Positions 2,253 to 12,597 of a DNA stretch of 12,597 nt are shown in pieces (position 1 is the stretch's first letter; the number at the start of each line of letters is the position of its first letter). Origin of the DNA: a virus (lineage: Duplodnaviria > Heunggongvirae > Uroviricota > Caudoviricetes); the IMG/VR virus record IMGVR_UViG_2663763227_000011; one strand, 5' to 3'. The position numbers were made by a program, and so were the translations under genes. The notes under the pieces were generated by a model that was given only the letters and a program-made list of their open reading frames with translations, ran no database searches and was not told where the DNA came from.

Positions 2253-2431
2253 CGGGTCCTTCCTGGAATTATGGCCCGTTACGGGGCGGCGACCTCGCGC
2301 GTTTTCACTATTTATGAAAATTTTTCGGGATCCATGTCCGGTTTCTCTGCAAGTTAACCATATGAAAAATATAAAAACATGCTTTCCATGAACCGGACAT
2401 GCGCAAAAAACAGACACTAAAACCGGACATC
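2253..2431 (+). other. Lambda-type cos site, copy A: cosQ-like flank, cosN, lambda-like I2 stretch, then three island-specific AACCGGACAT repeats (candidate cosB R sites)
   Basis: 2278-2329 reads cgttACGGGGCGGCGACCTCGCGcGTTTTCaCTATTTATGAAAATTTTtCGG, near-identical to the lambda cos region as I recall it, with the 12-nt cohesive-end sequence GGGCGGCGACCT at 2284-2295. Downstream repeats: ATGTCCGGTT (inverted, 2334-2343), AACCGGACATG (2391-2401), AACCGGACATC (2421-2431). Confidence 0.65.
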
Positions 2432-2498
2432 GAACCAGTTAACCGAAAGTGTGCACAAATCACATGCATTGCTGCGAGTGATTAACAAGTTATCGGCT

Positions 2499-2933
2499 TT
2501 ACTGTTCTGTATCGGCTGATTGCTCCATGCTGGCACGGCGAACGCTTACGGCATGACGCCACCCAGCCAGAAAGCCAGCCATTTTATTTCGTGCCTTGCT
2601 CACATCTTCCGGTGAATAGCCGTAAATCTGCAAACCTTCATCAAATCGATGTTCTGTTTCTTCACTGGAGTACTCGTCACGCTCAGATGAAAGCAGCCTG
2701 GCAAACATAATTTTTTCCAGCGCACTGGTTTCTACGTGATATCTGATGGCCTCAAGACGGCTTTTACCTGAAGACCAAAGCAATGTATGCCCGATGTGAT
2801 AACCGCCAGACTTTCCGCGATCCGCATTAAGATACGGCATCCCCTGTTTGGTCCATGCGCGAATAGTGGTTCTGTTAACCTTGAAATGTTCAGCTATTTC
2901 CTGCTGACTTACAAAACAAGCTTTATCAATCAT
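2499..2933 (-). CDS. Terminase small subunit Nu1-like DNA-binding protein, 144 aa (Rpp-like redirecting-packaging protein candidate)
   Basis: N-terminus SQQEIAEHFKVNRTTIRAWTKQGMPYL aligns with the lambda gpNu1 winged-HTH N-terminus (KKQLADIFGASIRTIQNWQEQGMPVL, from memory). It is much shorter than Nu1 (181 aa) and no large terminase gene is adjacent. ATG at 2933, AAGGT Shine-Dalgarno 6 nt upstream, TAA stop at 2499-2501. Confidence 0.75.
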   Translation of the reverse strand: MIDKACFVSQQEIAEHFKVNRTTIRAWTKQGMPYLNADRGKSGGYHIGHTLLWSSGKSRLEAIRYHVETSALEKIMFARLLSSERDEYSSEETEHRFDEGLQIYGYSPEDVSKARNKMAGFLAGWRHAVSVRRASMEQSADTEQ

Positions 2934-3002
2934 AATGTTACCTTAACTGCATGGTTAAATATTAATCAAGTGGTGGTGGTGTCACCTTCACGGAAAAACG
3001 TC

Positions 3003-3066
3003 ATAAATAGCGAAAACCCGCGAGGTCGCCGCCCCGTAACGGGTCCATATGCCGGAAAGGACCCGT
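3003..3066 (-). other. Second cosQ/cosN copy (copy B), inverted relative to copy A, lacking the AACCGGACAT repeats
   Basis: Reverse complement of 3003-3066 is ~90% identical to 2253-2318, including GGGCGGCGACCT (3023-3034 on the - strand) and CGCGGGTTTTCGCTATTTATGA. The sequence then diverges into the leader of the Nu1-like gene (CGTTTTTCCGT...). Confidence 0.55.
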
Positions 3067-3521: not shown

Positions 3522-3857
3522 TTATCGGGCCAGCGGCTGAACGGATACGCCAGAACCCGCAAAGGCGGCGCATTTTTTCGCATCGGTGTCGACGCTCTCA
3601 GGCCAGTTAACGGCGGCAATATTGAAAATCCCCGTCTTGTAACACTGTGCTGATTTCTGCTTTGACGTGTCCACAGGGTACGAGGTCAGATAAACAGCCT
3701 TGCCAGATTCCTGACCATCCCACGGCTTAAACTCGCCATTGTCTGCCAGCATCAGCGGGGTAAATTCCTGAATAACGCCAGCATCAGCGGCAAAATGTAC
3801 CAGCGTCGTGGCGACCTGCTGACTGCCTGCAAATAACTCAATGTATGGAGTGTCCAT
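3522..3857 (-). CDS. Head decoration protein, lambda gpD-like, 111 aa
   Basis: TPLMLADNGEFKPWDG and YKTGIFNIAAVNWPESVDTDAKKCAAFAGS parallel remembered lambda gpD segments ([47 protein letters not shown]). GGGGGGA Shine-Dalgarno upstream of ATG 3857. Confidence 0.8.
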   Translation of the reverse strand: MDTPYIELFAGSQQVATTLVHFAADAGVIQEFTPLMLADNGEFKPWDGQESGKAVYLTSYPVDTSKQKSAQCYKTGIFNIAAVNWPESVDTDAKKCAAFAGSGVSVQPLAR

Positions 3858-3869
3858 AGAATCCCCCCG

Positions 3870-4925
3870 TTAACCAATTTTGACGGTAACAAATTTGCGA
3901 ATATCTGCCGGTACCGGCTGCGGTGCACTGTGTGTCTGCACGTACTCAATCGCCGGATCGCCGTCCTCAATCCAGTTTTTCGGGTAAAACATGTTTTGTG
4001 TTGCGCCCGTTCTTACCGCTTCCTGATCCATTATCGCACCATAGGCCACCAGCCCTTTATTGTTGGTGTTACCTAGGACCAGCAAATCAGGCTCAAGGAA
4101 ATATTTTTCGGTACCATCGCTGTCAGTGTATTTGCCGGAATAGACGATAAGGGCCAGATCACCAAGATAGCCTTTAAAGCTCACCACTTCGCCCAGGTTT
4201 TTACAGGCCAGTTCGGCGGCGGATTCTGAACCACGGGAAAGATCGTACAGCTCACGGAATTTTTTAAAGCTGCGTAACGTTCGCCATACCTCAGCGCCCA
4301 TAATCATGACGTTTGCGGGGCAACCAGCCTGATCGGCGTATAGTTCGATATCATAGATTGGATCGTGGGTTTCTTTGTCCTGCTCTGACCATTTTTTCCC
4401 GTCGGCCTGCTCTATGATGTTTTTTTCCGGTATCTTCCAGTCGATTTCATAGCGCTCTATGCCTTCGCCCTCAATGATGTTTTTTCCGGTCGTTACCGCA
4501 TTTACCGCCAGCCATTCCACGCGCGCTTTTATGGCGTTTATCTGGCGGCGCATATTGCCAGTAATCAGGCGCATACGGCGATAGGTAGGGTCGTTAAGCT
4601 GTGCCGGATCTTCTCCAGCCATGCGCATGATGGTTTTCGTTGGATCGATTTCGTGCTTTGGCTTCATGTAGCCAGGTTTAATCGTGCTGGTTTCGTACCC
4701 TTTATCGCGCTGAACCTGGCTACCCACCATAGGCGAACAAAACGCCGACATGGTGACTTCTTCAATGTCCAGGGTATCCAGCATGATGTTTTGCGTGCTG
4801 AATGTCGCCACGTTCGGGAAAAACAGCGTAGTAAACAGAGGGCTGAATTTAAAATCCGCAATATCCCCGCGATTCAGGTACATGAAAAGCTGGTTAGTGT
4901 TAAGTGCCGTTGCTTTGCCTGCCAT
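3870..4925 (-). CDS. Major capsid protein, lambda gpE family, 351 aa
   Basis: Several blocks match remembered lambda gpE: KFSPLFTTLFF, PGYMKPKHEIDP, DPTYRRMRLITGNMRR, FKGYLGDLALIVYSGKY...LVLGNTNNKGLVAYGAIMD, YPKNWIEDGDPAIEY. The ATG overlaps the stop of the upstream 68-aa ORF (TAATG). Confidence 0.85.
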   Translation of the reverse strand: MAGKATALNTNQLFMYLNRGDIADFKFSPLFTTLFFPNVATFSTQNIMLDTLDIEEVTMSAFCSPMVGSQVQRDKGYETSTIKPGYMKPKHEIDPTKTIMRMAGEDPAQLNDPTYRRMRLITGNMRRQINAIKARVEWLAVNAVTTGKNIIEGEGIERYEIDWKIPEKNIIEQADGKKWSEQDKETHDPIYDIELYADQAGCPANVMIMGAEVWRTLRSFKKFRELYDLSRGSESAAELACKNLGEVVSFKGYLGDLALIVYSGKYTDSDGTEKYFLEPDLLVLGNTNNKGLVAYGAIMDQEAVRTGATQNMFYPKNWIEDGDPAIEYVQTHSAPQPVPADIRKFVTVKIG

Positions 4926-11367: not shown

Positions 11368-12597
11368 TTATATTTCTCTGGCTATTGGCAATGTGGTTAC
11401 GTTTTCATGTGTTCCCGCCAGTATCCCTAACCGCTCCGTCCACATATCCAGCGCGTCACGTTTCGCATCCAGATAACGGGAATGGTTATAGACTCGTTGC
11501 ATCCCTGGCATCTGATGACCTGTAAGCTGCTCCACGACGTGAGGATCCACGCCTAAATCGTTCAGCATCGTTGTAAAGGTGCGCCGGATGTCATGCAGTG
11601 ACCAGTGAGGGTGTTTTAGCCTCCTGTGCGCTAATCTGCCGTACTGCGACACGCTTGTTTCCTGTTTCACTTCCCCCAGCAATAAGCCCGTGTGCCTGTT
11701 CTGCTCCACCAGCTGCGTGACGAACGGCAGTATTGCTTCCGGTATGGGCCGGAATATTGCCACCTTCGTTTTGCTGTGTTCTTTCGGCACGGTCCAGAGC
11801 ATTTCGGTAAAATCCCACTCGCTGATCTCCGATAACCTCAGTTCTACCGTCCGGCATCCGAAAACAATCAGGAGGCGGATTAGTGCGACGTAGTAAGGGG
11901 AAAATATTTTTTTGTCCAGTGCCTGCAATAATTCGCCAAGTTCTTTGGTGCTTAAGACACGCTCGCTTATATCCGGTTTTTTCCCAACGTCCGCCACACT
12001 CATATCATCAAGAACGTTGCTGATTGCATAGCGCCGCCTCCGGCAGAACTTAAGCGCCTGTTTGCACGTCTGTAGCAAGAATCCGGCAGTAACAGGCGTT
12101 CGCTTTGCCACCTGGTCAAAACAGGCCAGCCAGTGCCGTAGCTCGCATTTATCCAGCGGCATAGCACCAATGTGCTGTATTACGTGATTATTAAGGCGCT
12201 TTTTCAGGGCGGCATAATCCACGCGGTTTTCCTTTACGTAAGACTCAAGCCAGTAGGTAAGCGCATCGCCAACCGTTACGGGCTTTAACGCTTTCTGTAC
12301 GGTGTAATTCATCTCATGACGTGGATTTTTCCCCTCAGCAAGCCAAGCGCGACACTGTGCCGCTTTTTCCCTGGCAGCTTTCAGACTCAGATCAGGATAA
12401 TTTCCCAGCTTAATCCGTTCCGGTCGTGCTCCCCTTCCCGTTCCGGCCCTGTAGGTGAAATACCAGGTTAAAAGGCCGCTGGTTGAATGCCTGACGCTCA
12501 GGTTTCCACCGTCATTAAGAAAGGCTGTTTTTTGGGCGGGTGTGCCGTTGATTTTCCTTAGCTGTGTATCACTCAGTTTGTTAAGTGCTCTGCGCAT
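11368..12597 (-). CDS. int: Tyrosine-type site-specific integrase, P4/CP4-57 family, 409 aa
   Basis: N-terminus LSDTQLRKINGTP...GGNLSVRHSTSGLLTWYFTYR matches the P4-type integrase arm-binding domain. The C-terminal catalytic region has RTVELRLSEISEWDF, HDIRRTF and the HxxxRxxY-type tail (GHQMPGMQRVYNHSRY). The start codon sits exactly at the window edge, so the true start and the adjacent att site cannot be verified. Confidence 0.9.
   Translation of the reverse strand: MRRALNKLSDTQLRKINGTPAQKTAFLNDGGNLSVRHSTSGLLTWYFTYRAGTGRGARPERIKLGNYPDLSLKAAREKAAQCRAWLAEGKNPRHEMNYTVQKALKPVTVGDALTYWLESYVKENRVDYAALKKRLNNHVIQHIGAMPLDKCELRHWLACFDQVAKRTPVTAGFLLQTCKQALKFCRRRRYAISNVLDDMSVADVGKKPDISERVLSTKELGELLQALDKKIFSPYYVALIRLLIVFGCRTVELRLSEISEWDFTEMLWTVPKEHSKTKVAIFRPIPEAILPFVTQLVEQNRHTGLLLGEVKQETSVSQYGRLAHRRLKHPHWSLHDIRRTFTTMLNDLGVDPHVVEQLTGHQMPGMQRVYNHSRYLDAKRDALDMWTERLGILAGTHENVTTLPIAREI

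Follow-up and report, generated by a model that had tools for sequence, protein, structure and literature searches.

In phage lambda, gpNu1 binds a cosB of the layout R3-I1-R2-R1, in which R3, R2 and R1 are located at 49-64, 109-124 and 151-166 from cosN, respectively. The cosB of phage N15 comprises R3 plus a remote rR2 that lies inside the terS gene. SaPIbov5-type islands carry a copy of the helper-phage cos and are packaged by the unmodified terminase of that phage (cited in PMC6092414). The E. coli island EcCICFT073 has two cos sites. Deletion of cos1 lowered its transfer by lambda and phage 80, deletion of cos2 raised transfer by the same two phages, and deletion of both sites abolished transfer (PMC6092414, an earlier ISME J paper). 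Published data also document that cos2, when placed on a plasmid, is functional as a cos site; it was presented as a functional second cos site without explanation, and the authors reported being unable to identify any phage cosB in the island. According to Fillol-Salom et al. 2019 (PMC6739421), RppA raised the transfer of cos1 plasmids, only plasmids bearing the cos1 cosB were transferred in cosB swaps with RppA present, and phage 80 given the cos1 cosB turned RppA-dependent. For the island cos, Murialdo and Feiss 2022 (PMC9026076) put forward one R3-PICI, located at bp 48-65; cos2 goes unmentioned in that paper.

We analysed a 12,597-nucleotide stretch of DNA (hereafter the window; IMG/VR record IMGVR_UViG_2663763227_000011) that contains both cos sites, and focused on three short repeats downstream of one of them. 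We consider it probable that these repeats are the R3', R2' and R1' sites of a lambda-style cosB, belonging to a distinct and common lambdoid class whose members include the PhiR12 phages, O157:H7 prophages and the potB prophage of CFT073, and that the island carries this module as cos2. On this reading, cos2 would hold an ordinary and complete phage cosB of another TerS specificity class, one that is widespread among E. coli genomes. A full-text literature search found no paper on this motif, on PhiR12 phages or on this cosB class, and none explaining cos2.

Two inverted cos sites around rppA

The window represents a phage-inducible island of the EcCICFT073 type. Sequence identity of the region is 99.7% to E. 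coli 042 and 98.6% to CFT073, where the counterpart adjoins phoQ inside EcCICFT073. Its 144-aa open reading frame is RppA, as judged by length, the published N-terminal sequence and residues R21, T22, R25, W27 and K29 (Table 1). The two cosN copies start at 2284 and 3034, 750 bp apart, and cos1 and cos2 flank rppA in inverted orientation. In Fig. S1A of Fillol-Salom et al. 2019 (PMC6739421), the sequence labelled cos2 has GGGATCCATGTCCGGTTTCTCTGCAAG...AACCGGACATGCGC...AACCGGACATCGAAC, and the one labelled cos1 extends into the rppA start codon. The primers for 'cosB of cos1' in the phage 80 chimera map to 2993-2972 (-) and 2853-2874 (+). The published Rpp-responsive cosB therefore runs from 2993 to 2853 (-), on the opposite side of rppA from the repeats. 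On the basis of this figure and these primers, the repeats belong to cos2.

Table 1. Features of the two cos sites and of related loci. Positions refer to the window unless another locus is named.
Feature	Position	Strand	Sequence or remark
cosQ of cos2	2254-2260	+	GGGTCCT, 30 bp upstream of cosN; left limit of phage cos homology in alignments
cosN of cos2 (copy A of the earlier note)	2284-2295	+	GGGCGGCGACCT, identical to lambda
cosN-proximal conserved segment	2296-2332	+	CTATTTATGAAAATTTT..., common to lambda and phage 21
R3'	2333-2343; exact AACCGGACAT core 2334-2343	-	reads AACCGGACATG; bp 50-60 from cosN, the lambda R3 position
I1-like element	2355-2378	+	TAACCATATGAAA (2355-2367), then A-tracts; between the inverted R3'/R2' pair
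R2'	2391-2401; AACCGGACAT core 2391-2400	+	reads AACCGGACATG; bp 108-118 from cosN, the lambda R2 position
R1'	2421-2431; AACCGGACAT core 2421-2430	+	reads AACCGGACATC; direct with R2'
rppA (c1503 homologue, 144 aa)	2499-2933	-	between the two inverted cos sites
Rpp-responsive cosB of cos1	2853-2993	-	limits from the phage 80 chimera primers (PMC6739421)
R3-PICI of cos1	2970-2987	-	AGGTGACACCACCACCAC
cosN of cos1 (copy B of the earlier note)	3023-3034	-	second exact GGGCGGCGACCT; inverted relative to cos2
cos1 element ACACCACCACCAC(T), window	2970-2987	-	
cos1 element ACACCACCACCAC(T), locus L088	~2445-2465		
cos1 element ACACCACCACCAC(T), locus L090	~2440-2460		
cos1 element ACACCACCACCAC(T), locus L086	~2445-2465		
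cos of the CFT073 potB prophage	~20530-20700 of L179		L179 is CFT073 NC_004431.1, 1328000-1377500
terS of the CFT073 potB prophage	20729-21238 of L179		

The two sites share the island, cosQ and cosN, and each has a non-lambda cosB that directs, or in the case of cos2 would direct, helper terminase to island DNA. The cosB of cos1 consists of a single proposed R3 (ACACCACCACCAC, bp 48-65) with no R2, R1 or I1 and is Rpp-dependent, whereas cos2 has three repeats plus an I1-like site and matches phage cos. Bp 48-65 of cos2 read TCCATGTCCGGTTTCTCT, and the conserved R3-PICI sequence ACCACCACC (bp 55-63) is not present there. The cos2 module has no terS downstream; it borders the 3' end of rppA, whose transcription runs toward the module. 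We also observed that the cos1 element ACACCACCACCAC(T) upstream of rpp is kept in E. coli RppA and RppB islands as well as in Klebsiella and Phytobacter, even where cosN differs. This conservation supports the R3-PICI proposal of Murialdo and Feiss.

Elsewhere in the window, the reading frames at 3522-3857 (-) and 3870-4925 (-) encode homologues of the lambda-type major capsid protein (Pfam Phage_cap_E) and of a head decoration protein (HDPD), which are kept in the Rpp islands of E. coli, Klebsiella, Phytobacter and Salmonella. A 2018 paper described EcCICFT073 as being without capsid morphogenesis genes.

A lambda-like array of three repeats in cos2

Downstream of cosN of cos2 lie three exact copies of AACCGGACAT, one on the minus strand and two on the plus strand. 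With the flanking base they are CATGTCCGGTT, AACCGGACATG and AACCGGACATC, and all fit AACCGGACAT(G/C). Their exact cores occupy bp 51-60, 108-117 and 138-147 from cosN, with start-to-start spacings of 57 bp (R3'-R2') and 30 bp (R2'-R1'), and R2' is inverted relative to R3'. An earlier note made from the sequence had described three repeats, one of them inverted, at spacings of roughly 60 and 30 bp, in a cosB-like array laid out as in lambda with a different sequence. That description is confirmed: its coordinates are correct within 1-2 nt, and the distances from cosN are close to those of the lambda R sites. Across the 12.6-kb window, AACCGGACAT has these three exact copies and one further match with 1 mismatch, against a chance expectation of 0.79 matches. 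When the 279-bp intergenic stretch that holds the repeats was simulated under a first-order Markov model, any 10-mer reached three copies in 35 of 20,000 simulations. The 1-mismatch copy, AACCGGATAT at 11969-11978 (-), is located inside a 409-aa ORF at the right end of the window, presumably the integrase gene; standing alone, this copy probably arose by chance.

The array resembles lambda cosB in that it directly follows cosN, has an inverted first pair around an A/T-rich, putatively IHF-type element and ends in a seemingly accessory third site. Distances of the first and second sites from cosN are 51 and 108 in the window, compared with 49 and 109 in lambda. The repeats themselves are unrelated in sequence, with AACCGGACAT in the window and a CGTTTCC core in lambda. 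Orientation differs as well: the odd-oriented site is R2 in lambda and the first site in the window, although the R3/R2 pair is inverted in both. R1' has the same orientation as R2' at a distance of 30 bp; lambda R1 lies 42 bp from R2 and points the opposite way.

Between R3' and R2', TAACCATATGAAA has 2 mismatches to the IHF consensus YAANNNNTTGATW, a loose consensus. In every lineage, the start of this IHF-like element is at position 22 counted from the first repeat. Its match to YAANNNNTTGATW is perfect in PapRG-type phage, a sister lineage, and in cos2 of the RppB island, and has 1 mismatch in locus L107; at the corresponding offset, lambda has TAACTTAATGTTT in its spacer. With the inverted R3'/R2' pair flanking an IHF-like element of conserved register, the cosB of cos2 appears to have the layout R3'-I1-like-R2'-R1', as in lambda. 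All phage lineages examined share the register of the first R site (R3', bp 50-60 from cosN). The segment between cosN and R3' overlaps a feature that phage 21 records annotate as an IHF site. The three repeats are very probably R elements bound by TerS.

Phage counterparts of the module and their small terminase subunits

The cosQ-cosN-repeat module and the cos of lambdoid phages and prophages share 85-98.5% identity. Positions 2302-2430 of the window are 98.5% identical to five PhiR12 phages, and the matching prophage regions are mostly 85-91% identical. Such matches are found in 1185 of 5426 complete E. coli genomes (~22%), including CFT073. In PhiR12_1 and an O157:H7 prophage, the matching stretch follows the lysis genes and is placed between cosN and terS, after which come TerL, W and portal. 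The phage repeats start at +51, +108 and +138 from cosN and terS at +196, compared with +191 for lambda nu1. The module is directly upstream of a Nu1-family terS in PhiR12_1, O157 F7386, the CFT073 potB prophage and ~160 IMG/VR loci, and the same repeats occur in hundreds of phages that have their own TerS and no Rpp. The repeats are thus not specific to the island, as the earlier note had supposed. Island and phage sequences are homologous from cosQ (2254) up to the third repeat (2431), directly after which the homology ends. Since these limits coincide with cosQ and R1', the island captured exactly one complete cos module of 178 bp. The island cos2 is kept at 91-100% identity in ~63 genomes.

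For a DNA footprint, we compared 40 unique cos alleles from 78 viral contigs, a set in which TerS is 99% identical throughout. R3' is invariant in 40/40 alleles, R2' varies in 4 of the 40, and R1' varies only at its second base; the adjoining spacers exist in at least 5 different versions. Within 2375-2431, a common variant is present in 1/20 repeat columns versus 13/37 spacer columns (Fisher p=0.012). Over the whole of 2296-2431 the contrast between repeats and spacers is marginal (p about 0.08), since conservation extends to the cosN-proximal and I1-like segments; only the distal half shows it clearly. R1' looks accessory: the sister phage lineage has no such site, and in one phage it is joined to R2'. 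In the latter (L081, IMGVR_UViG_2675903621_000013, cos near 1036), an exact 30-bp deletion has merged the two sites into one, which is consistent with recombination between direct repeats and with a dispensable third site.

The phage TerS encoded next to the repeats belongs to the Nu1 family. Its C-terminus matches Pfam Phage_Nu1 (E=1e-18), and hhalign aligned residues 4-167 with residues 5-180 of lambda Nu1 at 99.3% probability, including the winged helix-turn-helix. Recognition helix residues 17-24 of lambda correspond to TerS residues 16-23; the helix is RQLRRLQK in R12-type TerS and RTIQNWQE in lambda. A TerS sequence search against solved structures returned no meaningful match.

TerS and repeat motif covary, in a comparison that comprises three DNA-binding-domain classes and three motif variants only. 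R12-type TerS (TDRQLRRLQK) is found with three copies of AACCGGACAT (ACAT) and a cosN of the lambda type or of two other types. PapRG-type TerS (TERWLRDLQK) goes with two copies of AACCGGAAGT (AAGT) in the same register, at 57-bp spacing, and with cosN type 2. The Enterobacter mori TerS (SDRRLRDLSK) is accompanied by AACCGGAAAT and related copies and by a cosN close to type 2. TDRQLRRLQK DNA-binding domains are always paired with three AACCGGACAT repeats, across three cosN types. In the natural chimera L102, the DNA-binding domain is 94% R12-type and the C-terminus 94% PapRG-type; its cosN is type 2 and its motif ACAT. Because this chimera separates the two, the motif follows the DNA-binding domain of TerS and cosN follows the C-terminal, TerL-side part. 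Natural covariation of this kind suggests that motif specificity would be set by the N-terminal DNA-binding domain of TerS independently of cosN and TerL, and it names a recognition-helix/DNA-motif pair for studies of terminase specificity. Lambda/21 hybrid genetics follows the same logic. Five IMG/VR contigs (L102-L106, terS at 501-1007) encode chimeric TerS and combine a PapRG-type cosN with R12-type repeats, and thereby act as a natural domain-swap experiment.

A TerS-relative scan of species-representative genomes yielded 4 loci, one of them useful. This is a prophage of Enterobacter mori LMG 25706 (L095, NZ_GL890776.1, 590-890) with a compact cosB, whose proximal motif is located just before terS. 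Copies AACCGGAAAT and AACCGGAACC lie ~20 bp before the terS start codon, and two further copies, AACCGGAAAG and AACCGGAAGC, lie inside terS at +155 and +183. A proximal motif with copies inside terS resembles the N15 cosB. Unlike both, the window has the full three-site lambda-like layout, and the E. mori prophage represents a different lineage.

Possible functions of cos2

In the mechanism that we propose, a dimer of the cognate Nu1-family TerS would bind the inverted R3'/R2' pair through its N-terminal winged helix-turn-helix, with RQLRRLQK as the recognition helix. The DNA would bend at the A/T-rich I1-like element between the two sites, a step in which IHF may take part, and R1' would contribute extra affinity. 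Bound TerS would anchor TerL, leading to nicking of cosN 51 bp away, and packaging would proceed rightward through rppA. A helper with a lambda-, 80- or 21-type TerS would have cos1 read by an Rpp-TerS heterocomplex, and phages of the R12-type TerS class would read cos2 directly and could package the island from it. Such a mechanism would give the island two packaging signals of different specificity. Unlike in SaPIbov5-type islands, the candidate mimic cos is accompanied by a second, reprogrammed cos in inverted orientation.

A phage-type cos2 offers a concrete reason for the presence of two cos sites and predicts that phages of this TerS class would mobilise these virulence-associated islands without Rpp. 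A candidate cognate helper is close at hand in CFT073, where a complete lambdoid (potB) prophage at 1,328,014-1,372,820 is located only a few kb away. The prophage TerS shows 100% identity to that of PhiR12 (WP_000235436.1), and its cos is of the same class. R2' and R1' of this prophage carry one substitution each (AACCGGGCAT and AGCCGGACAT), so the island copy of cosB is 'better' than that of the resident prophage. Among the island-bearing genomes listed, 44 of 60 have at least a second match to the cosB probe, against a genome background of ~21%; this co-occurrence is only suggestive because the sampling is clonal, which inflates the figure, and because the second match was verified in CFT073 alone. 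The experimentally defined helper, CFT073 phage 4, has a 21-type TerS, and lambda and phage 80 likewise have other TerS types, so that the helpers tested all fall outside the cognate class.

The E65K substitution in lambda TerS abolishes RppA binding. Residue 52 of the TerS of L002 and L093, which is aligned with E65 of lambda Nu1 in a low-confidence region of the hhalign alignment, is S in the R12 type or K in the PapRG type. With S or K at the E65 equivalent, this TerS class may be naturally Rpp-insensitive, which hints that phages of the R12/PapRG class might escape hijacking through Rpp.

The recurrence of the two-cos layout in an RppB-type island with a different cosN and the sister motif supports a phage-type cos2, as does the finding that the cosB of cos2 in EcCICFT073 gave no RppA-dependent transfer in the published swaps. 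Counting against a benefit from cos2, transfer by lambda and 80 rose rather than fell on its deletion. That the island deliberately carries two cos sites for two helper classes, with cos2 as a mimic of common and perhaps Rpp-insensitive phages, is a reading that we hold only tentatively. The increase in transfer upon cos2 deletion would also fit a neutral or mildly harmful relic, that is, a phage cos fragment acquired by recombination, or one that gene conversion between inverted cosN repeats has kept similar, with real R sites of no use to the island. The island allele falls inside the phage allele pool at 98.5% identity, suggesting recent exchange; strain B771 shows that recombination and inversion between the two cos sites do occur; and Rpp islands of other genera are without cos2 in the flanks fetched. 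Several observations make a relic rather unlikely: the two-cos layout is present in both RppA- and RppB-type islands, in each case with cosN and cosB matched by phage lineage; the three island repeats are perfect, whereas two are degraded in the resident CFT073 prophage; the captured segment is exactly a complete cos; and ~63 genomes retain it.

The earlier note had proposed that Rpp, the Nu1-like protein, retargets helper terminase to these repeats, which would then form a cosB recognised by Rpp alone or together with helper TerS. The idea is attractive, since Rpp does retarget TerS to an island cosB and some influence of RppA on the transfer of a cos2 plasmid has been reported (p=0.04, with no direction given in the accessible text; both from PMC6739421), and the repeats sit at R-site positions. 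Published genetics nevertheless contradict it, because the repeats lie in cos2 whereas the swaps and the chimera map RppA dependence to the cos1 cosB (2993->2853). When the published experiments are mapped onto the window, RppA-dependent packaging is not conferred by the repeats. The occurrence of the same repeats in hundreds of Rpp-less phages with their own TerS argues in the same direction, as do the Klebsiella and Phytobacter islands, in which a near-invariant Rpp DNA-binding domain and a retained ACACCACCACCAC are found with no repeats in the 2.5-kb flanks. The published swaps thus largely refute the idea, which we regard as wrong and highly improbable. Promoter elements, operators, a small ORF or an RNA serving the c1504 homologue (1938-2219, -) are scarcely credible as an explanation of the repeats. 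The repeats do lie in the 279 bp that separate rppA from the following same-strand gene, and a 53-aa ORF at 2308-2469 (-) overlaps them and has an annotated 40-aa counterpart in PhiR12_1. However, no sigma-70-like promoter was found in 2220-2500, a single weak terminator-like match in that interval is within chance expectation, and there is no Rfam match. Variable columns are spread 7:6:5 over the three codon positions, so the minus-strand ORF gives no sign of coding constraint, and its start ATG is formed by a repeat read in reverse complement. Phage copies of the module also have no adjacent c1504. The promoter/operator, small-ORF and RNA readings were rejected on the lack of a promoter and of an Rfam match and on the codon-position spread. 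A lambda-style phage cosB carried as cos2 remains our preferred reading of the repeats.

Other islands were compared using contigs of individual Rpp homologues. In L086, an E. coli island of the RppB type, two inverted cos sites likewise flank rpp, each of them having cosN type 2. The element ACACCACCACCAC is retained in its cos1. Its cos2 has an inverted AACCGGAAAT and a direct AACCGGAAGT and shares 84.5% identity with the PapRG-04-4 prophage cos. In the Klebsiella and Phytobacter Rpp islands, neither a second cos nor such repeats were found within 2.5 kb on each side of rpp; the cos1 element is present there, and the Rpp DNA-binding domain is nearly invariant. The earlier note had named absence of the repeats from homologous, efficiently packaged islands as evidence against its own proposal; the Klebsiella and Phytobacter flanks bear this out in part. 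The Salmonella Rpp loci (L091 and L092) have no cos next to rpp, and an Rpp-relative scan of species-representative genomes found none.

E. coli B771 has a relative of the island (L085, NZ_CP120557.1, 1620413-1623611) with a flipped segment between its two inverted cos sites (~1455-2060 of the locus). A cos1-type cosQ flank is joined to the repeat-bearing cosB, and rpp is a 3' remnant. An identical G-to-T change is present in both cosN copies (GGGCGTCGACCT). This arrangement points to recombination or gene conversion between inverted cos copies.
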